A stretch of 64,000 nt of DNA from an uncultured Spirochaetota bacterium (GTDB lineage Bacteria > Spirochaetota > Spirochaetia > SZUA-6 > Fen-1364), in contig CAVUXE010000059.1 in the NCBI GenBank assembly GCA_963745235.1, positions 1 through 64,000 of the forward strand, read 5' to 3'. Positions 2,420-13,613 of the stretch are shown here, piece by piece (position 1 is the first letter of the stretch; each line of letters opens with the position of its first letter). The notes beneath the pieces were generated by a model. It searched no databases and had not been told where the DNA came from. It saw only the letters and a list, made by a program, of their open reading frames with translations. The translations under genes were made by a program, and so were the position numbers.

Positions 2420-3381
2420 GCCGGTTCACGGTGGTCATAGCGGATGATCGCTACGCGAGCTACCGTGAAGAGGAAGAGGTCCTTCGGGACGTTGATGCGG
2501 AGATACATGTTTTCCGCTCGGGCACGACCGCCGAGGCGAAGCGGGCTTTCTCTGGTGCGAACGGAATCCTGGTGAACCTGTTCCCCATGACAGCAGAGCT
2601 GATCGAGTCCCTCCAGGGGTGCCGCGTGATCTCACGCTACGGCGTCGGGTACGACAACGTGGACGTGGAGGCGGCAACGCGCAGGGGTATCTGGGTGACC
2701 TTCGTGCCGGACTACTGCTTCGAGGAGGTCGCGGACCACGCGCTCGCGCTTCTGCTGTGCTGCATCCGCAAGGTCGGATACAAGGACCGTATGATCCGCG
2801 AAGGGAAGTGGAACCTCCATCGGGACCAGCCCTGCCACCGCGTGGAGGGAAAGACTCTCGGAATCCTTGGCTATGGAAACGCGGCGCACACCCTGTTGAG
2901 GAAGGTCTCGGGTCTCGGGTTCGGCCGCGTGCTCATGTGTGATCCCTACGTGCGGGCCTCCACCATCAAGGCCGCCGGCGCCGAGCCGGTGGAGCTCCCG
3001 GTCCTGCTGGGACAGTCGGACTACATCTCCGTTCACGTCCCCCTCACCCCGGAGACCCGGCACATGATCGGGCGGGCGGAGCTTGCGCTCGTGAAGCCGG
3101 GAGCCATCCTCATCAACACCGCCCGCGGGCCGGTCCTGGATGAAAACGCGCTGGCCGACGCTCTTGCAAGCGGCAGGCTTGGCGGAGCGGGGCTTGACGT
3201 ATTCGAGACCGAGCCGCTGCCAGCCGCGAGCCCGCTTCGGAAGCTGGATACGGTGATCTTCACGGACCACGCCGGCTGGTACAGCGAGGAGTCGGTGGTG
3301 GAGCTGAAGACCAAGGCGGCCCGCAACGTGGCAGCGGTGCTTGCCGGGGGCCGGCCGCCTTATCCGGTCAACCGGCTGTGA
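2416..3381 (+). CDS. D-isomer-specific 2-hydroxyacid dehydrogenase (CtBP/SerA-like)
   Basis: YGVGYDNVD, GILGYGN, HVPLTPET, LINTARG, GLDVFETEP, HAGWYS; overlaps the previous stop codon. Confidence 0.9.
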   Translation: MSRFTVVIADDRYASYREEEEVLRDVDAEIHVFRSGTTAEAKRAFSGANGILVNLFPMTAELIESLQGCRVISRYGVGYDNVDVEAATRRGIWVTFVPDYCFEEVADHALALLLCCIRKVGYKDRMIREGKWNLHRDQPCHRVEGKTLGILGYGNAAHTLLRKVSGLGFGRVLMCDPYVRASTIKAAGAEPVELPVLLGQSDYISVHVPLTPETRHMIGRAELALVKPGAILINTARGPVLDENALADALASGRLGGAGLDVFETEPLPAASPLRKLDTVIFTDHAGWYSEESVVELKTKAARNVAAVLAGGRPPYPVNRL

Positions 3382-4149
3382 TCTCTGGCTGCGCCTCGGG
3401 CGGCCGCGCTCGTCAGCTCGTTCATTTTTCCGAGCACCGCCGCGTAGGGGTCTCCCCCCCGGGCAATCTCCCTGACCAGCGCGCTGCCGACAACCACCGC
3501 GTGCACGTGCGGCGCCACTTCTCTGACCTGGGCAGCCGTAGAGATGCCGAATCCCCCGAGGATTTTCGCCGGCTGATCCGGGGAAAGGGCCCGAACTCGC
3601 TCCAGGAATGAAAGCCCGTCCCGGTCCATCCGGGTGAGCGCGCCCGTTGTGCCGGTCCGCAGGGTGGCGTAGATGTACCTGGGGCGGAGAGCCCCCACGC
3701 GCCGGAGCCTTTCCTCCCTCATGGATGGAGAGACGACGGGGACCGCGGACAGGCCCCGGCGAGTCGGCCGCCTCGAAAAGCCCTTCGTCGTAGTCGGGAG
3801 GGAGGTCGGGAACGATCACTCCCGCAACGCCGCTTGCGGCGCACCGCGTGAGAAACTTTTCGATGCCGTGTGTGAAAAGCATGTTCGCGTAGCTCATGAG
3901 GAAGATGGGGACCCCCTCATGATGAATCTCCGCGACGAGACGGAACCCGTCGGTGATGGTAAACCCGGCGGCCAGCGCGGCAGTGCATGCTGCCTGGATG
4001 TCGGGGCCGTCGGCAGTCGGATCGGAAAAGGGGAACTGGACTTCCAGGTACGAGCATCCGCCGTCCAGGAGCCCGCGGGCAACCGAGAGGCTGGCCGCCC
4101 TGTCCGTGTAGTGGGCAACCATGTGCGCCATGATCCGCTCCCCGCTCAT
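3360..4149 (-). CDS. trpA: Tryptophan synthase alpha chain (frameshift near 3750, probable assembly indel)
   Basis: LEVQFPFSDPTADGP and IVPDLP in one frame; YATLRTGTTG, GGFGI and VVVGSALV in the next; follows trpB. Confidence 0.9.
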
Positions 4150-5426
4150 CGGGACCCTCCCGTCAGGGGGCCGGGTGCCGCGGCGAGCTTGCCGCGCGGC
4201 GCGCCATTTCCCGCTCCGCACTCCGAGGCAAGGAATGCCTGCCAGTTTTCCCGGTCCATGGCGGCCGCCAGGATGAAAAGGTCCTTGTCTCCCCGGCCCG
4301 ACATGTTCACGATGACGGCCTTCTCACCCGGATAAGACCGCGCGAGCTTCATCACGGCGGCCGCTGCATGAGCAGACTCCAGCGCAAAGATCATGCCCTC
4401 CGTCCGAGCGAAGAGCTCCACCGCCTCCAGCGCCTCTGTGTCGCTTGCGGTGGTAAAGGTGATCCGTCCCGTCTCCCCAAGATGAGCGAGCTGCGGCCCG
4501 ACTCCGGGGTAGTCCAGCCCCGCGGAGATGGAATGCGTGGGCAGAAGCTGGCCGTCTTCGTCGGAAAGGAAGAGCGATTTGTAGCCTTGCACGATTCCGG
4601 GCCTGCCCTTTCCATTCATCCGGGACGCGTGCTCCCCGGCTCCCCCGCCCCGGCCCCCCGCCTCCACCCCGATAAGGTCGGGACCCGCCTGCTCGAGGAA
4701 GGGTGAGAAGAACCCGATTGCATTCGAGCCGCCGCCGACGCAGGCAACCAAGGCCGCGCAATCGATGTCCTTCTCTCTCATCTGGGACGCAAGCTCCCTG
4801 CCGATCACCGACTGAAACTCGCGCACCATGTCAGGGTAGGGGGAAGGGCCGAGCGCCGACCCGATGAGGTAATGCGTGGTGGGAAAGCTGGAAGCCCAGT
4901 CCCGCAGCGCTTCGTTCACTGCGTCCTTCAGCGTCGCGGAGCCTCCACGGACGGGCATCACCTCCGCGCCATAGCGCTCCATCCAAAAGACATTCGGCCG
5001 CTGGCGTCGTATGTCCACCTCCCCCATGTACACACGGCAGGGGATGCCGAGCCGGGCGCAGATGGCCGCGGCGGCAACCCCGTGCTGGCCGGCTCCCGTT
5101 TCCGCAATGATCCTCGTCTTGCCCATCCGCCTGGCAAGGAGGGCCTGTCCGATTGCGTTGTTGATCTTATGCGCCCCCGTGTGCGCGAGGCCCTCGCACT
5201 TGATGTAGATGCGCGCGCCGCCAAGCGCCCGGGTCGCGTTCCGCGCGAACAGGAGCGGGGTCGGTCTGCCGGCGAAGTCCGCGAGCGCCTCGTTCAGCTC
5301 CGCAAGGAACTCCCTGGATTCCATGGCGGCCAGGAAAGCCTCCTGCAGCTCATCCAGCGGCGTGCGAAGCATCTCCGCGACGTAGCGTCCCCCAAACCCG
5401 CCGAAATAATCGTTATACTTCTGCAT
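4146..5426 (-). CDS. trpB: Tryptophan synthase beta chain (TrpB1)
   Basis: FGGRYV, HTGAHKINN (PLP lysine), AETGAGQHG, CVGGGSNA, HSISAGLDYPGVGP, SGRGDKD. Confidence 0.97.
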   Translation of the reverse strand: MQKYNDYFGGFGGRYVAEMLRTPLDELQEAFLAAMESREFLAELNEALADFAGRPTPLLFARNATRALGGARIYIKCEGLAHTGAHKINNAIGQALLARRMGKTRIIAETGAGQHGVAAAAICARLGIPCRVYMGEVDIRRQRPNVFWMERYGAEVMPVRGGSATLKDAVNEALRDWASSFPTTHYLIGSALGPSPYPDMVREFQSVIGRELASQMREKDIDCAALVACVGGGSNAIGFFSPFLEQAGPDLIGVEAGGRGGGAGEHASRMNGKGRPGIVQGYKSLFLSDEDGQLLPTHSISAGLDYPGVGPQLAHLGETGRITFTTASDTEALEAVELFARTEGMIFALESAHAAAAVMKLARSYPGEKAVIVNMSGRGDKDLFILAAAMDRENWQAFLASECGAGNGAPRGKLAAAPGPLTGGSR

Positions 5427-6843
5427 TGCGATGTATCTCCTCGAAGAACACCGTGAGCTTTTCCTTGTCCTTGCCGCCGGAAGCTGACTCCAGCCTGCTG
5501 GATGCATCGATGAGCTCCGGGCGGAGCCTCTGCATGACCTCTGCGACATTCTCCGGGCCAATGCCGCCGGCAATCCACAGGGGACCTTGACCACTGACTG
5601 CCCTGGCAAGCTCTTCCGGGATCCGTTTCCCCGTGCCGCCCGAGGCGTCGGCTGACCAGGCGTCTGCAAGCACGCGCGGGCAGCGGTAGAGGCTCATCCT
5701 CTGGACGTCCTTCATCTCCTTGACCCGCACGGCTTTGTAGTACGGAAATGCCAGCTCGGCGCACTCTTCGGGTCCTTCCTCCCCGTGGAATTGGACGGCA
5801 TCCACCAATCCCTCTTCCAGCGCGGAGCGCACGTCGGCGCCGAGCCGGGACGCCCCGTTTTCTCTCTCCGTCACAACGACGGCCACCTTCAGGCTGTCTA
5901 TGCCCGAGAGCTCGCGCAGGAGGGAAAGCGGGGCTCGTCTCCTGGACGGCGCCATCACGAATCCGAGCGCATCGGCTCCGAGGCTGACGGCTGCCTCCGC
6001 GTCCTGGGGACGGGTGATGCCGCAGACCTTGACCAGGGGGCGCCCGCGCAGTGCGCGCGCATACAGCCGTTGCCAGAAGTCTCCGGGTATCCGGTCGAAA
6101 CTTCCCAGCAGCGCGGGCACTCCCTCGGGAGACCGCATGGCGGTCTCCCCGACCAGAACGCCGTCGAACCCCCCCGACAGCGCGAAGCTCACGTCCTCCG
6201 GGCCGCGGATGCCGGATTCGAACACCAGCCGGGTCTTCCAGTTGATGCGAGGCCGCAGCGCAAGGGGGTGAGTGAGGTCGACGGTGAAGGTTGCAAGGTC
6301 CCGACAGTTGATCCCGACCAGCGAGGGCGCCAGGGATCGGCAACGCTCCACGTCGGCTGCGTCATGCACTTCCACCAGCGCCGCGAGCCCCCGCTTCTGC
6401 GCCGCTTGATGGAGGGAGACAAGGGTGCCCTCATCGAGAAGGGAGGCGATCAGGAGGACGGCGTCCGCTCCGGCCCGCCAGGACGTTTCGACGTCCTCCT
6501 CGTCCAGGAGGAAATCCTTGCGCAGCACGGCGACGCCGGGCAGCGCCCGCTTGATGCGCGCAAGGTCATCCAGTGATCCGCCGAAGCTGTCCTCCTCGGT
6601 CAGGACGGAGACGCTGCGCACGCCCGCGCGCGCGTAGGCCCGCGCCTGCTCCACCACGTCCACGTCCGGCGCAATGTCTCCCCGCGACGGCGAGCGGCGC
6701 TTGACCTCGCAGACCAGGAACGGGTCCCTGCCGAAGCTCTCCAGGGGGACATCCCGGGCGTCCCGCGCGCGCGCGCCGAGCCAGTGCCCTTCCCGCGCCA
6801 CCCGTTCCTTCCTGCGGGTGACGATCTTCTCAACGATTGTCAT
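5413..6843 (-). CDS. trpCF: Bifunctional indole-3-glycerol-phosphate synthase / phosphoribosylanthranilate isomerase
   Basis: TrpC motifs EVKRRSPSRG, LRKDF, GADAVLLI, ESGI, followed by TrpF motifs VKVCGIT, VQFHG, GGTG, IDASS. Confidence 0.93.
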   Translation of the reverse strand: MTIVEKIVTRRKERVAREGHWLGARARDARDVPLESFGRDPFLVCEVKRRSPSRGDIAPDVDVVEQARAYARAGVRSVSVLTEEDSFGGSLDDLARIKRALPGVAVLRKDFLLDEEDVETSWRAGADAVLLIASLLDEGTLVSLHQAAQKRGLAALVEVHDAADVERCRSLAPSLVGINCRDLATFTVDLTHPLALRPRINWKTRLVFESGIRGPEDVSFALSGGFDGVLVGETAMRSPEGVPALLGSFDRIPGDFWQRLYARALRGRPLVKVCGITRPQDAEAAVSLGADALGFVMAPSRRRAPLSLLRELSGIDSLKVAVVVTERENGASRLGADVRSALEEGLVDAVQFHGEEGPEECAELAFPYYKAVRVKEMKDVQRMSLYRCPRVLADAWSADASGGTGKRIPEELARAVSGQGPLWIAGGIGPENVAEVMQRLRPELIDASSRLESASGGKDKEKLTVFFEEIHRNAEV

Positions 6844-8463
6844 GCGGCGCTGACCTTGGCCGTCTTGGCCCCCGCCATGGATTCGCCCCTGATCCGCGCA
6901 AGAGTGCTTCGCGCTTCTCCGGATTCCAGGGCCTGGCGCGCCCTGAGGTACCCGTCCCCTATGTTCCGTGCGATTCCGCAGATGTAGAGGGCCGCGCCCG
7001 CGTTCAGCAGCACTGCCTCGCGGACGGCCTCGGGTCCGCCGCCGTCAAGGATGGCGAGAGCCATGGCGGCATTCTGGATTGCCGTTCCTCCCTTCAGAGC
7101 ATCCACCGTGGACCGCGTGATGCCGAACTCCTCCGGCGTGAGCATGTAATCCCGGCGGGCCCCGGTTTCGTCCACTTCCACGACGAGGGTGCGCGCCGCA
7201 GACGGAGATCTCATCCAGGCCGTCCTCCCCGTGCACCGCCATGACTCTGCGCACCCCGAGGAGATGGGCTGCTTCCGCCACGGGCCCGCAGAACGCGGGA
7301 TCGAACACGCCGATGAGCTGGTAGGAGGCATCCGCCGGGTTGGAGAGCGGGCCGATCAGGTTCATGACGCTCTTGACCCCCAGCTCGCTTCGCGCTCTTG
7401 CCGCGTGGCGCATTGCGCCGTGATAGGTGGGCGCGAAAAGGAAGCAGAAGCCGGTGGTGCGCAGCAGCTGTTCGCCGGTTGCCGGCGGAACATCCACGGG
7501 GACGCCCAGCTCGCGGTAGAAATCCGCGCTTCCGCACAGGGAGCTTGCCGCCCTGTTGCCGTGCTTCGCAACAAGGGCGCCGCAGGATGCCGCGACAATT
7601 GCCGCAAGGGAGGAGATGTTGAACGTGCCCAACCCGTCGCCTCCGGTCCCGCAGGTGTCCAGCGCCTTGCGGTCGCTCGCGAAGGGCTTCTTCTTGCGCC
7701 TGAGCACGGACGCAAATCCGGCCAGCGTATCCGGCGTGATGAGCTTCCCCGTCAGTGACGCAAGGACCCCCGCGATCTGGACGTCGGTGAGCTGGCCGTC
7801 GGTCAGCTCGTCCATGAAAGATTCAGCCTGGGCCCGGTCCATGGCCTTTCCCAGCTGCAGCGCGCCGAGGACCGCGGAGAGTGGAAACGGCTCCCGTCGA
7901 TACCGGAGGAAGTTGCGCAGGCAGCGCTTGCCGGTTTCCGAGGCAATCGATTCGGGATGGAACTGCACTCCTTCAATGATGTGCGTCGTATGGCGGACAC
8001 CCATGATCTCCCCGTCGGGAGAGACTGCGGTGATCTCCAGCTCCTCAGGGAGAGAGTCGCCGTCTATGACGAGGGAATGATACCGGGTGAACCGGGCGGT
8101 GCGCGGCAGGCCGCGGAAAAGCCCACGCCCGTCCAGTGACATCTCCTCCGTCTTGCCATGGACGATCCGGCGGGCAGTGACGATCCTCGCGCCGAATGCC
8201 TGTCCGATGGCCTGGTGGCCCAGGCATACGCCAAGGATCGGGACCGTGCCCGCCATGCGCTGGATGCACTCCACGCTGATCCCCGCTTCCTCGGGCCTGC
8301 CGGGACCCGGGGAGATCACGACGCCGGCCGGGGACAGGGAGATGATCTCGTCCACGGTGATCCTGTCGTTGCGAAACACTTCCACCGTGTCTTCCGTGAG
8401 CTCACTGAGGTACTGGTAGAGGTTGTGAGTGAAAGAATCGTAGTTGTCGATGATGACGTACAC
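6840..8463 (-). CDS. trpGD: Bifunctional anthranilate synthase component II / anthranilate phosphoribosyltransferase (frameshift near 7195)
   Basis: IDNYDSFT, SPGPGRP, GVCLGHQ, QFHPES; then DTCGTGGDG, AKHGNR, GLDEIS; C-terminus LNAGAALY in a shifted frame. Confidence 0.93.
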
Positions 8464-8465
8464 GG

Positions 8466-9884
8466 CTATTCCTCCTTGTATCCGATTGCCTTCGCGAGTG
8501 CGCCGAGCTTCGCCTCGGTCTCCTGGTATTCTTTCTCCGGCACCGAGTCATAGACGATCCCCGCTCCCGCCTGGAGAATCATCCGGTCTCCCTGCTTCAG
8601 CGCGCTCCTGATCGTGATGCACGAGTCCAGGGACCCGTCGGACTCGATGTGCGCCACGACCCCCGCGTAAAAGCCCCTTTTCTCCGGCTCGAGGGAATCG
8701 ATGACCTCGACTGCCCGGATCTTCGGAGCCCCCGAAACGGTGCCCGCGGGGAAGGTCGCGCGAAGCGCGTCCAGGCCGCTCTTGTCCTCCCGAAGCCTTC
8801 CTTCCACCTGGGAAACGATGTGCATCACGTGCGAGTAGCGCTCCACCTCCATGAACTCAGGCACCTCCACGCTGCCCGGCAGCGCAGACCCGGCCCAGGT
8901 CGTTTCTGGCAAGATCGACGAGCATGAGGTGCTCCGCCCGCTCTTTCTCGTCCGCCAGGAGCTCCTTTTCCAGCGCCGTGTCCTCCTCCGGGGTCGCTCC
9001 GCGGCGTCGGGTGCCGGCGAGCGGACGGATCATCGCCCGCCCATCCTTCGCCTTGACGTGGACCTCGGGGGAGGCGCCGAAGAGCTGGAAGTCCTCGAAG
9101 TCCAGGTAGAACATGTAGGGGGACGGGTTGAAGCTTCGCAGGGCACGATACGCTTCGATGGCAGGCATGCCGGGTGCGAAGCTCCACCCGTCGCGACAGG
9201 ACCCCCTGCAGGAGGTTCCCCTTGATGATCTCCTGGCGCACCGCCTCCACTCCGGCGAGGTACGCATCATGGTCGTCCGGTCGGGGACAGCCTCCACCGG
9301 CCAGCTTCTCTGCGCCGGATGCCATGAAATTGAAGTCCAGGTCATTGATGCGCGCTTCCGTCTCATCCAGCGCGCGGGAAAGGTCGATGCTCTTTCTCCC
9401 GGTAGTTCACGCCGACAAGCGAGATCGTGTCCGTGTAGTGGTCGAAGACGAGGAACACGTTCCCGAATATGAACATCGCATCCGGGATGCCGACCGGATC
9501 CGGCTTCTCCCGCAGGTGGATGGTGTCGAACCGGGCACAGTATTCATAGGACAGAAACCCGATGCCCCCGGTGGGCAGGGGGAACGGCGCGGTCAACCCC
9601 TCGTGCTGCCCGCTGAAGTGGGAAAGCACATCCAGGATGTCCTGCGCCTTCGTCTTGAGCGCGAGGGTGGCTCCGTCCCTGCTCATGAAGAACTCATCGC
9701 CTTTCTGAAAGACCCGAAAGGCCTCCCTTGCGAGAAGAAACGAGTACCTTTCCTTTCCCCTGTGGAAGGAGGCTGACTCCAGGAGCGCCCGGGCTTCGAG
9801 CTTCCTGGCAAGGGAGAGCGGCGTGAAGCGTTCTCCGTTGATGACCCGTATCAGGACTTTTTCTTTCTGCGTGGCAACCGCCAT
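8466..9884 (-). CDS. trpE: Anthranilate synthase component I (about three frameshifts near 9385, 9170 and 8890)
   Basis: [66 protein letters not shown] spread over four frames; AAGGAGG RBS. Confidence 0.92.
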
Positions 9885-9913
9885 TCCCGTCCTCCTTGCA
9901 ACTCTCTCCGGCG

Positions 9914-9955
9914 AAAAAAAAGCCGCAGCGCCCTTACAACAGGCACTGCGGCTTT
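9914..9955 (-). terminator. Second (distal) intrinsic terminator of the trp operon leader
   Basis: Minus strand GCCGCAGTGCCT / GGGCGCTGCGGC stem followed by 8 T. Confidence 0.85.
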
Positions 9956-9957
9956 CC

Positions 9958-10001
9958 AAAAAAAAAGCGCAGGACCTGGCCTCTTCAGCCAGAACCCGCG
10001 C
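9958..10001 (-). terminator. First (attenuator) terminator of the trp operon leader
   Basis: Minus strand GCGCGGGTTCTGGCT / GGCCAGGTCCTGCGC stem followed by 9 T. Its 5' arm GGTTCTGGCT is exactly complementary to AGCCAGAACC just after the leader stop codon. Confidence 0.85.
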
Positions 10002-10032
10002 TCTTGCGTGCGCTACGCGTGCATGGTTCTGG

Positions 10033-10083
10033 CTATCTCCAGGACCACCACCAGTTCATCAGACAGGCGCGCGTCGAAATCAT
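10033..10083 (-). CDS. trpL: Trp operon leader peptide MISTRACLMNWWWSWR
   Basis: 16-codon ORF with four Trp codons, located between a promoter and alternative antiterminator/terminator hairpins upstream of trpE. Confidence 0.9.
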   Translation of the reverse strand: MISTRACLMNWWWSWR

Positions 10084-10089
10084 GGCTGG

Positions 10090-10119
10090 AACATACTGGA
10101 AAGCCGCCAGGAACGTCAA
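10090..10119 (-). promoter_or_regulatory. Sigma70-type promoter of the trp operon
   Basis: TTGACG-N18-TATGTT, 6 nt before the trpL ATG. Confidence 0.7.
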
Positions 10120-10178
10120 GAGGGAAATTGACGAAACGGCCGGGATTGGAGATCTTGAGAGGTAACAAGGAGAATACC

Positions 10179-10637
10179 ATGGACACAGTGAAGGAAGTGC
10201 TGGCAGCCAAGGGCGGGAGCGTCTTCAGCGTTCGACCGGGCGCGACGGTCTTCGAGGCCCTGGAGGTCATGGCTGACAAAGGTGTGGGCGCTGTCCTGGT
10301 GGTCGACGAGTCAGGCAAGCTGGTCGGCATTTTCTCCGAACGCGACTACGCAAGGAAGCTCGAGATACGCGGGAAGAACGCCCGCGCCACGTTTGTGCGG
10401 GACGTCATGACCTCCGAGATGCTCGGCGTGGAGCCCACGACAACCGTGCGGGAATGCATGTCATTGATGACCGCGCGACGCATACGCCACCTTCCCGTTC
10501 TGGAAAAGGGTCAACTGGTGGGAATGATCTCCATTGGCGATGTCGTCAAGACGATCATCACCGAGCAGGAGCTCATGATCTCGCAGCAGGCCTACATGAT
10601 CGGCCAGTACGAGCGCTCTCTGGCAGGCGGGCCCTGA
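10179..10637 (+). CDS. CBS-domain (tandem pair) protein
   Basis: GIFSERDY, RHLPV, ISIGDVVK; AAGGAG RBS. Confidence 0.9.
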   Translation: MDTVKEVLAAKGGSVFSVRPGATVFEALEVMADKGVGAVLVVDESGKLVGIFSERDYARKLEIRGKNARATFVRDVMTSEMLGVEPTTTVRECMSLMTARRIRHLPVLEKGQLVGMISIGDVVKTIITEQELMISQQAYMIGQYERSLAGGP

Positions 10638-10651
10638 ACCGGGGCGCGTTC

Positions 10652-11509
10652 CTATTCCCCGAACACTTCCTCCAGGGCCGCCCTCATCACGCGGGGATCA
10701 GGATCGATACCCGTCCAGAGCTTGACCCCGATCACTCCCTGGTTGACCAGCATCCCGAGGCCGTCGATCACCCGGCATCCGATCTGCTCGGCGCTGTGGA
10801 TGAGCCGCGTGCGGGGCGGGTTGGGTATGACATCGGCCACCACCACCTGCGGCCGCAGGGTCTGGAAGTCAATGGGCAGCTCGGCACCCACGTCCGGGTA
10901 CAGGCCGATGGAGGTGGCGTTGATGACCACGTCGACCGATGCCGGCACTTTGAATCGCCCCTCCCACGGCAGGGAGCTCACCTTCACTCGTGTCCGCTCT
11001 GCAAGCAGCGCGGAAAGCTCGTCTCCGCGGTCCTTTCCGCGGTTGACCACCGTGATTCGGGCAACACCGGCCAGGGCGAGCTCCACCCCGATTGCGCGCG
11101 CGGCGCCGCCGGCGCCGAAGAGCAGGACGTTCTTTTCCCGGGGGTCGATGATTTCCCTGAGCGACTTCAGAAAGCCCTTGCCGTCCGTGTTCTCTCCGAC
11201 GAACCTGCTGCCCCGCCGCACGACGCAGTTGACCGCCCCCATCAGCCGCGCTGACTCGGCTATCTCATCCAGGAGCGGGATGACGGCGACCTTGTGCGGG
11301 ATTGTGCAGTTGAAGCCGGCAAAGCCGAGCGCCCGCGCGCCCCTGACGGCATCCGCGAGGTCCGCCGGGTCCACCTCCAGGGTCAGGTAGCGCCACGCCA
11401 GCCCGTGGTGGCGGAATGCCGCCTCCACCATGACCTGCGTCGGGTTCTCCGCGACCGGCTTGCCGAAGACGGCGGTGATCTCCTGCTTGAAGCTCAACGT
11501 TCTTTTCAT
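10652..11509 (-). CDS. aroE: Shikimate dehydrogenase
   Basis: GFNCTIPHK, GAVNC, ENTDGKG, GAGGAARA, INATSIG, GLGMLVNQ. The listed 715-aa ORF is an artefactual fusion with the upstream gene. Confidence 0.9.
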   Translation of the reverse strand: MKRTLSFKQEITAVFGKPVAENPTQVMVEAAFRHHGLAWRYLTLEVDPADLADAVRGARALGFAGFNCTIPHKVAVIPLLDEIAESARLMGAVNCVVRRGSRFVGENTDGKGFLKSLREIIDPREKNVLLFGAGGAARAIGVELALAGVARITVVNRGKDRGDELSALLAERTRVKVSSLPWEGRFKVPASVDVVINATSIGLYPDVGAELPIDFQTLRPQVVVADVIPNPPRTRLIHSAEQIGCRVIDGLGMLVNQGVIGVKLWTGIDPDPRVMRAALEEVFGE

Positions 11510-11523
11510 GGGTATCTGTTTTT

Positions 11524-13613
11524 CTACCTCCCCTCGGCGACCCGCAGGGGAACAAGGTAAGCGCCCGGGTCCGGGACGGGCTTCCCGTCCTGCAGGACGC
11601 TCACGCGCTCCTGGGAGCCCGCGGAAGCGGCGAACTTTCCGTCCGGGCAGGATGAGGGCCCAGCCGCCGTCGGTGAACAACGAAAGCTCCGCCATGCTCT
11701 CCCCGTGCTCCGCGTCGATCAGGCTCACCGAGGAATCGCGATTGAGCGAATACAGGATCCCGGCGCCGCAGAAGAGCCCGACGGTTCCGCGCGCGGAGGC
11801 GGGGAGCGCCTTCAGCATTCCCTGCTTCCACCGGGATATTGTCTCCCGCCCAAGGCTCGAGTAAAGGGCTCCCGAATCGCGGTCAAAACAGAGGCTTGCT
11901 GACAGATGCTCCCCGGGGGAGCTTTCGATGACAGACTGGCTCTGGTAGTCCGTGCCCGAGTTCGCCACCAGGTTCGTGGTCCCGTCGGCATCGACTCCCA
12001 GGGAGAACAACGTGCCCGTCCGCGCATCGTACGTGACGTCATAGGTGTAGCGGTTTGCGGTCGAAATGGGGTCTGTCTCCCCGGTGTCGATCGAGATCCT
12101 TACAAGAGATCCAGGATCCGCATCCCCCGGCAGACCTCCCACCACGACCGAGTTGCCCGCGGCCAGTGTCGCCCCCATGGCCCCGGGCCGAAGGGCCTGC
12201 GCTCGCGTGGCGCCCCCGGGGATATCGATGATCCTCAGGGTCCCGTCCTTCGAAAGCAACAGGCATTTCCGGCCGTCAGAAGCTGCCTGGATGACAGGAC
12301 CAGCCAGCGCCCCGCCGGAGGCCAGGGCACGGAAGGTCCCCGTTTGCAGGTCGAGAATCGAACAGTTCCCTGGACCGTCCCCGGTCTGCCATACGAGCAT
12401 CGACCCGTCATCGAGGAAGGTCAGGTCAACGGGCGCCTTGAACGGGTTGTCCATGCGCAGGGACCCGATTGAGTCCGCGCCGCCGGCCCCCTGGCGGGCA
12501 GCGTCGGGAAGTCCCGTTGTGAACACCTGTATCCACGAGCTGGTTGCAAGCGCCACCGCGCTGCCTCTCACGGCCATGCCCGTAATGAGGGCCCGCTCGT
12601 CCCCGGGGAAGCTCAGTGAGGTCCCCTCCCTCGCAAGGGAAGCAATCTCTCCGCTGCTCGAGCCCAGGATGAGAGCCCCCGGGACATAGTGGAGAACCGA
12701 GGGCTGCTGCAAAGCAGCCTGGAGATCATCTCTTTGCGTGAGTGAGCCTTGTCCCATGTCCCAGCGGGAAAGGACTCCATCCTGCCCCAAGCATGCCACT
12801 TCGTTCCCGGAAAGGGGATATGTCCATGGAGGTCACGCCGGGGACCGGGACGCGGGCCCGCACTTTGCCGCTTGTCACGTCGATGAGGCACAGCTCGCTG
12901 TCCGTGCTCCCGACAAGGGAGCTCAGGTCTGGAGAAAGCCTGATGTGGGCAAGGAGCGGGACGCTCTGCAGGCTTTCAAGCAGCTTCCCGGACGCCAGGT
13001 CCCAGTACGAGATGAGGCCGGTCATGCGGTATGTCATCAGGATCTTTTCGCTTTTCGAGAAAGTCGCAAAGCCGACCATCCCGCCTTCCGTGTGAAACGC
13101 CACCGGGGTGCCATCCGATGCGTTGACAATGCGCAGGCTTTCCCAGCGGGGGAGGCCGTACAGCAGGTATCTCCCGGATGCGGAGTACCGAAGAAAGAGG
13201 GGCTGATCGTCAAGCGGGATCCTGAAGAGGCGCTCTCCCTTCTGCCAGTCCCACACATCAACGGAGAAGCTCTGAAATGAATCGGTGGACAGGACGGCGA
13301 ACCGGGTCCCTTCCGGGCTCACCGCTATCATTGCCGCCTGAAGGCCTGTTACCGTGAGGCTCTTCACCAGGGACCGCGTGGCCGCGTCCCAGATCTTCAC
13401 CGTGCCATCTGAACCGCCGGTGAAAAGGAGGCCTCGTGCCTCGTCGCTGGCAATCGCGAGGACGGCGCCCCGGTGGCCCGAGATCACAACGGCCCGGGTC
13501 GACGGGTGATCCGCGACGCCGCCTGACCAGCCGGCCCAGCCGGGGAAAAGAGCAAGCCACAGGACGGCAGCCGGCAGCAGCAACGCTCGCACCCGAGGGA
13601 TCGACTTCTTCAT
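11524..13613 (-). CDS. Exported WD40/beta-propeller repeat protein (frameshifts near 12800 and 11645)
   Basis: Signal peptide; GHRGAV...TGGSDGTVKIWD, DVWDW, SYWDL and SRWD repeats. The reconstructed C-terminus ends at TAG 11524. Confidence 0.75.

Follow-up and report, generated by a model that had tools for sequence, protein, structure and literature searches.

Organization of the trp locus and its leader

The window analysed here is a stretch of 64,000 nucleotides (nt) from an uncultured Spirochaetota bacterium (assembly GCA_963745235.1, contig CAVUXE010000059.1, positions 1 to 64,000), which contains on its minus strand a tryptophan biosynthesis operon composed of trpE, a trpG-trpD fusion, a trpC-trpF fusion, trpB and trpA. 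The leader that precedes this operon encodes a short peptide and carries two intrinsic terminators in series, hereafter T1 and T2. It is likely to be a ribosome-mediated trp attenuator made of six pairing segments, in which a relay between successive hairpins would open both terminators. The basis of this reading is entirely computational: the elements, their conservation, the covariation of five helices and the energetics were computed, whereas the stopping of transcription at T1 and T2, its dependence on tryptophan and the kinetics are inferred from these.

All attenuator elements lie on the minus strand, and all coordinates are positions in the window (Table 1). Upstream of the leader open reading frame (ORF), the hexamers TTGACG and TATGTT, separated by 18 nt (10119-10090), form the only sigma-70-like site in 9600-10400, a region for which 0.1 such sites are expected from shuffled sequences. 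The leader ORF contains four Trp codons, three of them in tandem, and the trp operon lies downstream. Segment 1 falls within the Trp codons and segment 2 at the stop codon, and the mutually exclusive pairings 1:2, 2:3 and 3:4 are all present: TGGTCCTGG pairs with CCAGAACCA with a single C/A mismatch, while AGCCAGAACC and GGTTCTGGCT form a perfect helix of 10 base pairs. Two intrinsic terminators, each a G+C-rich stem followed by a U-tract, stand before the first structural gene, and T2 begins two bases after the run of nine U's (U9) of T1 and ends in a run of eight (U8). Promoter and leader ORF had each been placed at these positions by an original prediction drawn from the sequence alone, and the protector (1:2) and antiterminator (2:3) pairings as well as the two closely spaced terminators are likewise present as it had described them.

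Table 1. Features of the trp leader and of the operon it precedes, as positions in the 64,000-nt window.
Feature	Position	Strand	Basis or remark
-35-like hexamer TTGACG	10114..10119	-	promoter scan; TTGAC kept in same-genus leaders
-10-like hexamer TATGTT	10090..10095	-	promoter scan; 6 nt upstream of leader ATG
Leader ORF, MISTRACLMNWWWSWR + TAG, 16 codons	10033..10083	-	ATG at 10083
Trp codons	10053-10045 and 10041-10039	-	inside leader ORF
Segment 1, inside Trp codons; partner is segment 2	10039..10047	-	RNAfold and conservation of helix 1:2
Segment 2, AGCCAGAACC; shares last two bases of stop codon	10025..10034	-	conservation of helix 2:3
Segment 3, GGTTCTGGCT; upper T1 5′ arm, antiterminator partner of segment 2	9987..9996	-	extended 2:3 helix
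Terminator T1: stem-loop 10001-9967, U9 9966-9958	9958..10001	-	fold, energies, conservation
Relay hairpin: 9978-9962 (T1 3′ arm and first U's) with 9957-9940 (GG and T2 5′ arm)	9940..9978	-	
Terminator T2: stem-loop 9952-9922, U8 9921-9914	9914..9952	-	fold, energies, T-run conservation
Shine-Dalgarno (SD) sequence AAGGAGG	9897-9891	-	upstream of trpE ATG at 9884
Controlled operon: trpE, trpG-trpD fusion, trpC-trpF fusion, trpB, trpA	2635..9897	-	Pfam

The minimum-energy structure of 9905-10090, as computed with RNAfold, combines 1:2, T1 and T2 at -87.7 kcal/mol (z = -4.42), and none of 200 shuffled sequences was as stable. A simple terminator scan returned no site because the internal U/U mismatch of T1 and the 9-nt loop of T2 fall outside its rules, and this empty result is thus not evidence against either terminator.

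The short distance between the -10-like hexamer and the ATG suggests that the leader ORF may be leaderless. As it is not preceded by an SD sequence, translation of the leader peptide probably takes place on a leaderless mRNA. Among the leaders read from the order of the window, this distance is 6-11 nt (mostly 6-7 in the same genus). Leaders of the other class, unlike those of this order, have a 5′ untranslated region with an SD sequence.

Given that the assembly is noisy, with trpE and its neighbours frameshifted in the window, the lengths of the T-runs were checked against short-read contigs (X1-X4) from four public DNA runs of four studies. Both terminators are covered without gaps by X1 (9757-10161) and X3 (9622-10083), which show no difference from the window, and by X2 (9639-10400), which differs by one base whose position was not listed; X4 (9947-10168), also without differences, reaches T1 only. 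Three independent runs thus span both terminators gap-free, and U9 and U8 are therefore real. Among the public runs listed as carrying the region, none was an RNA run. The same comparison revealed 1-nt insertions or deletions relative to the window at 9392, 9311, 9286, 9169 and 8875, so that the breaks in trpE reflect assembly errors or strain differences and not pseudogenes. In the window, trpE (8466-9884) falls into several reading frames, and disturbances also affect the ORFs of trpGD and aroE (regions 6843-8463 and 10655-12799). The Pfam domains found in the operon are Anth_synt_I_N, Chorismate_bind, GATase with Glycos_transf_3, IGPS with PRAI, PALP and Trp_syntA, and a divergent gene encoding a CBS-domain protein (Pfam) lies upstream of the leader.

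A conserved helix between the two terminators

A further helix can link T1 to T2. The original prediction had noted nine complementary pairs between the 3′ arm of T1, with its U-tract, and the 5′ arm of T2; the complementarity is real and longer, as it extends to 16 pairs and forms in the window a relay hairpin of -20.4 kcal/mol. A relay hairpin is found in each of the 40 leaders with both T1 and T2 (tandem leaders) that were collected from two classes of Spirochaetota, with energies of -15.0 to -28.0 kcal/mol (median -20.5). Shuffling the T2 5′ arm brings the mean relay energy to about -9 kcal/mol: no shuffle out of 200 was as good in 27/40 leaders, and at most 13/200 were in any leader. Once formed, the relay sequesters most of the T2 5′ arm (median 13 of 16 nt).

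Covariation was followed in an alignment that begins with the T1 3′ arm and ends with the T2 5′ arm (A2; 40 rows, 39 of them distinct). There, the relay appears as a 17-pair helix with 82.8% of the cells paired, versus 37-47% after the partner has been shifted by 1-3 columns, and its covariation score is 0.269, versus 0.06-0.13 for the shifted registers and 0.182 +/- 0.010 for shuffled alignments, none of which (0/500) reached the observed score. Six pairs of the helix are altered on both sides in a compensatory manner, with for instance UA in 26 rows and CG in 12, UA in 18, GC in 13 and AU in 4, or CG in 14, UA in 8 and GC in 4. The second of these is pair 19/34: in leaders of the CAGGCC type, reading of the alignment places its 3′ partner outside the T2 stem, and by this reading the base would be kept for the T1 3′ arm and not for T2. 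The relay helix is thus conserved, with covariation, in related leaders.

The other helices were analysed together with the relay, in the register of the window, in a second alignment (A1; 33 rows). The fractions of paired cells are 94.6% for 1:2, 92.6% for 2:3, 94.7% for T1, 90.3% for T2 and 77.0% for the relay, and pairs altered on both sides number seven in T1 and nine in T2. Segments 1-4 are strongly conserved across classes, as might be expected if the terminated leader RNAs also acted in trans as small RNAs (sRNAs) in the manner of rnTrpL of Sinorhizobium, the two terminators then producing two isoforms. Trans-acting sRNAs derived from attenuators do exist, according to a passage of one report (PMC6614838), and a function of this kind would be compatible with an attenuator. 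It is nonetheless very improbable here, as the two partners of each segment, together with the coding role of segment 1, already account for the conservation.

Tandem and single-terminator leaders across Spirochaetota

Relatives identified through the N-terminus of TrpE are all Spirochaetota metagenome-assembled genomes (MAGs), obtained from soil, peat and similar sources. When 60 related genomes were searched at the DNA level, the region extending from the Trp codons to the U-tract of T2 was matched at E <=1e-17 in 16 of the 20 genomes of the same genus, with weaker matches in other families. Within the order (92 genomes), 41 genomes carry the pattern formed by two Trp codons, segment 2 and segment 3; by manual reading, about 35 of these matches are true leaders and 6 are chance matches in coding DNA. 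The pattern also occurs in 21 of 401 genomes sampled across the phylum, mostly in one family of another class (11/17). A set of 51 leaders was assembled, which comprises the 40 tandem leaders and 11 leaders with T1 only (L071-L081). The WWW motif, or its extended form WWW(F/S)W, is kept across this set with the exception of L041, whose third Trp codon is altered (TGGTGGCGG) and whose stop codon is replaced by TCG, so that the ORF continues to position 78 of the extract; either this leader is decaying or its sequence contains an error.

The two types are distributed differently: tandem leaders are spread over four families of the order and are also present in another class. The single type is limited to one family, a sister family within this order. 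The 11 leaders of this family share with the others the leader peptide, segments 1-3, T1, the SD sequence and trpE but are devoid of T2, and on these features they are classical four-segment attenuators with T1 as the only terminator. T1 is hence of a working terminator type. Because the tandem type is so much more widespread, loss of T2 in the sister family would be a simpler scenario than gain elsewhere.

Within the tandem leaders, T2 is followed by a T-run of at least 5 in 40/40 cases. The T-run of T1 is also at least 5 in 31/40, but is 4 or shorter in the remaining nine (L039, L083, L041, L048, L052, L055, L059, L065 and L082; e.g., ACTTTCTGG or TGTTTCGTAC). Among the single-terminator leaders, the tails of L077 and L080 are mis-cut after TTTTTGC in this determination of T-runs. 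Where the T-run of T1 is degenerate, T2 must be the working terminator, and its only link to the leader peptide is then through the T1 3′ arm, i.e., through the relay.

The variability of the T1 T-run, set against the constancy of that of T2, also bears on a different explanation, according to which the leader of the window would be a his-type attenuator with six segments: T1 would merely be the equivalent of the middle hairpin (C:D) of the his leader, its U-run would serve as a loop and as the partner of the A-run before T2, and T2 alone would terminate. The validated his leader works in just this way, with C:D followed by GUGGUGCAUGAA and no U-tract, and in the relay the first U's after T1 indeed pair with the GGAAA preceding T2. 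On the other hand, T1 of the window is a G+C-rich stem of -24 to -29 kcal/mol located directly before nine U's that were confirmed by independent contigs, a T1 T-run of at least 5 is retained in 31 of the 40 tandem leaders, and the homologous hairpin is the sole terminator of the sister family. For the window, this explanation is accordingly unlikely.

Several leaders carry additional elements. An extra G+C-rich hairpin (e.g., GCACGCCTTTGGCGTGC) is inserted between segments 2 and 3 in L002, L003, L005 and L007, i.e., in the loop of the antiterminator, and lifts the computed stability of 2:3 to -34 to -49 kcal/mol. Between T2 and trpE, L019, L052 and L054 have about 150 nt of extra hairpins together with a third terminator-like element (AAAAAGCCACC...GGTGGCTTTTT), and L005/L033 an insert of about 100 nt. 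More distant trpE loci from Treponema/Breznakiellaceae-type MAGs (L058, L060-L064) are without a leader and display palindromic TGTTTCTATTGACAGAAAC-like repeats across the promoter, which are candidate repressor operators, while L047, L050 and L051 have a different, long leader with a GTTTCT...AGAAAC palindrome.

Energetics and co-transcriptional folding

In the window, computed energies are -24.8 kcal/mol for the extended 2:3 helix, -20.4 for the relay and -30.0 for T2, while T1 reaches -24.2 kcal/mol with its G+C stem and -28.7 when the A/U extension is included; across the 40 tandem leaders, T2 ranges from -14 to -36 kcal/mol. Barriers estimated with findpath amount in the window to 11.6-11.8 kcal/mol for the transition from 2:3 to T1 and to 11.4 kcal/mol from the relay to T2 (8.6 under a shorter definition of the relay), with medians over the 40 leaders of 10.65 and 8.8 kcal/mol, respectively. 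Applied to validated switches, the same method gives 5.9 kcal/mol for the transition from 2:3 to 3:4 of E. coli trp, and 15.6 and 11.7 kcal/mol for those from D:E to E:F and from B:C to C:D of E. coli his. The estimated barriers are thus like those of the trp and his antiterminators of E. coli.

The position of the ribosome was then represented by masks. With the Trp codons masked, which mimics starvation, and the RNA extended to the 5′ arm and loop of T2, the lowest-energy structure consists of 2:3 and the relay (-45.5 kcal/mol); with the stop codon masked, at the same RNA length, T1 persists (-38.1 kcal/mol).

Folding during transcription was addressed with a crude, purpose-written simulation in which the chain grows by one base per step and only downhill moves are allowed, provided that their findpath barrier does not exceed a threshold (7 and 10 kcal/mol for the window; 8 only, with one run per leader and condition, for the 40 leaders). 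In the window under starvation, all 19 pairs of 2:3 and all 16 of the relay are formed, and none of the five bottom pairs of T1 or of T2 is closed at the decision points. Under replete conditions, with the ribosome at the stop codon, these bottom pairs are formed in full for both terminators (5/5). When the T1 3′ arm is barred from pairing in the starved run, T2 closes (5/5). Among the 40 leaders, at least one terminator is closed in 37 under replete conditions, and blocking the T1 3′ arm closes T2 in 26 of the 27 that are otherwise open when starved. The simulated leader of the window thus shows the expected switch, which holds for part only of the larger set (see below). These results are suggestive and back the relay, and the simulation is no substitute for DrTransformer or Kinefold.

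A model for serial attenuation and its weak points

A working model can be proposed from these data. When charged Trp-tRNA is ample, the ribosome would reach the stop codon of the leader ORF and mask segment 2; T1 would then form and most polymerases would stop at its U9, while T2, folding behind T1, would catch those that escape. When charged Trp-tRNA is scarce, the ribosome would stall at the WWW codons and mask segment 1, leaving segment 2 free to pair with segment 3 and thereby preventing T1. The freed T1 3′ arm, together with the first U's of the U-tract, would capture the T2 5′ arm as it emerges, so that the T2 3′ arm would be left without a partner and the polymerase could proceed into trpE. 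The central idea of the original prediction, namely that the freed T1 3′ arm antiterminates T2, is supported by the computed stability of the relay, its conservation, the masked folds, the simulation, and the leaders in which T1 has no proper T-run.

A number of observations weigh against this model. Conservation is lower for the relay than for T1 and T2 (77-83% of cells paired versus 90-95%), the relay contains a one-base bulge in the genus of the window, pair 15/38 being unpaired in 19 of 39 rows, and the sequences are related, so that the compensatory changes represent few independent events. The barrier from the relay to T2 is only 2.5-3.4 kcal/mol in L046, L067, L069 and L070. In the simulation, both terminators are open under starvation in only 27/40 leaders, and the full expected switch (open when starved, with at least one terminator closed when replete) is obtained in only 24/40. 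In addition, when the window is folded without a ribosome, T1 is still open at its decision point (0/5 bottom pairs) and T2 is closed (5/5): a small hairpin, GCGC-ACGCAAGA-GCGC (9998-10013, minus strand), holds the 5′ base of T1 in this run and so delays it, with T2 as back-up. Finally, the comparison of cognate relays with chimeras failed in several clades, where many non-cognate partners were as good as the cognate one (e.g., 30/32 for L018 and 22/32 for L021), because the core of the T2 5′ arm, AAGCCGC, is almost universal. In the clade of the window, only 0-1 of 15 non-cognates were as good, which supports co-evolution there.

The failure of the chimera control and the near-universality of this core, together with the near-identity of the T1 and T2 stem bases in many leaders, are what would be anticipated if T2 were a leaky, unswitched fail-safe that lowers the output of the operon, and if its complementarity to the T1 3′ arm had been left over from a duplication or simply followed from the GCCGC/GCGGC motifs that both stems place next to A- and U-runs. 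However, terminators with the stability and the invariably retained T-run of T2 would block the operon under starvation, and leaders without a T1 T-run would be unregulated. Furthermore, the relay persists in both classes even though loops and upper stems have changed, it includes bases beyond the T2 stem whose changes track those in the T1 3′ arm, and shuffled T2 5′ arms almost never match its stability. Altogether, an unswitched T2 appears quite improbable, and the attenuator with a relay described above is the preferred interpretation.

Leader-peptide attenuation is a textbook mechanism, established with a small number of proteobacterial operons, each of which has one terminator. Placing two serial terminators under one sensor is expected to lower basal read-through while keeping inducibility: if each terminator lets a fraction f of the polymerases pass, two in series should let through about f squared. 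The model would also add a tryptophan attenuator to Spirochaetota, and could provide synthetic biology with a compact means of tightening attenuator-based switches. More tentatively, the combination of serial terminators, a single ribosome and a relay could constitute an attenuator class of its own, recurrent and as yet undescribed, of which Spirochaetota would keep the whole evolutionary series. As judged from the leaders collected here, this series would run through four-segment trp-type leaders with T1 only, leaders with two live terminators, and his-type leaders with six segments and a T1 that has no U-tract. If true, it would illustrate the origin of multi-hairpin attenuators and a path toward his-like relay leaders. 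These natural variants (T1 only, T1 and T2, T1 without its U-tract followed by T2) are in any case ready-made controls.

Comparison with known systems

The Rfam family of the E. coli trp leader, RF00513 (Trp_leader), is absent from the 11 Rfam matches obtained at E values up to 10 for 9500-10500, where no leader family was matched at all. One match, RF02883 BcKCsr2 (Burkholderia sRNA 2; 9915-10024, minus strand), reaches 31.9 bits with an E value of 1.1e-05, below the gathering threshold of 40. As it rests on the hairpin shapes of T1 and T2 and on a U-run, it was treated as a resemblance of shape; in the relevant part of a review, BcKCsr2 is an uncharacterised RNA derived from a 5′ untranslated region of Burkholderia (nc5U15; PMC10987360).

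The original prediction was accompanied by the remark that no described example was known, and this stands in part: no leader-peptide attenuator with a two-terminator relay was found in the literature searched, older subscription papers and supplements lying outside this search, whereas the relay logic itself is known from the his leader (see below). The literature on Spirochaetes and attenuation yielded no description of a tryptophan attenuator and a single, unrelated paper. Candidate precedents were set aside, as the "two terminator hairpins" of PMC4615214 correspond to 1:2 and 3:4 in E. coli trp, and PMC5314783, PMC1262725, PMC8632094 and, from the part of it that was available, PMC13401043 are unrelated.

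Two partial parallels deserve mention. Tandem terminators, the upstream one with a potential antiterminator, are described in the rimP leader of some Gammaproteobacteria in a passage of Naville and Gautheret (2010, PMC2965389). The likeness to the window lies in the two successive terminators of a 5′ leader; this passage mentions neither a leader peptide nor a relay between terminators, and both the gene and the signal are different. In Deinococcus deserti, leaderless leader peptides, including that of trpEGD, are reported from differential RNA-seq in passages of PMC4007540, with a transcription start that coincides with the start codon of the leader peptide or precedes it by 1 nt and with amino-acid genes under control, as proposed here. 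The leaderless start comes there from RNA-seq, whereas in the window it is suggested by promoter spacing alone, and a second terminator is not mentioned in these passages.

The known systems most like the window leader are the trp and his leaders of enterobacteria. With E. coli trpL, it shares tandem Trp codons ahead of trpE, the pairings 1:2, 2:3 and 3:4, and an intrinsic terminator, and the leaders of the sister family (L071-L081) have exactly the four-segment layout of trpL. The window differs from trpL by its second terminator, by its fifth helix, and by the promoter-like site located 6 nt before the ATG.

With hisL of Salmonella and E. coli, the likeness concerns the alternating chain of hairpins, in which the middle hairpin, once opened, supplies its 3′ arm as antiterminator of the last one. 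As summarized in a passage of PMC4046918, a ribosome that stalls on the his leader leaves segment B free to pair with C; this releases D, which pairs with E and so keeps the terminator E:F from forming. Folding E. coli hisL under the starved mask reproduced B:C and D:E, with energies for D:E (-15.2 kcal/mol) and E:F (-26.9 kcal/mol) and a barrier between the two (15.6 kcal/mol) of the same order as in the window. Beyond the other amino acid sensed and the other phylum, the difference lies in the middle hairpin: in hisL, C:D is followed by GUGGUGCAUGAA and has no U-tract, so that hisL has one terminator, whereas in the window the middle hairpin carries U9, and its homologue is the sole terminator of the sister family. 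The relay logic is therefore not new, as it is that of the B:C/D:E chain of the his leader, and the leader described here extends the textbook switch and does not found another; what is new is that the middle hairpin is itself a terminator.

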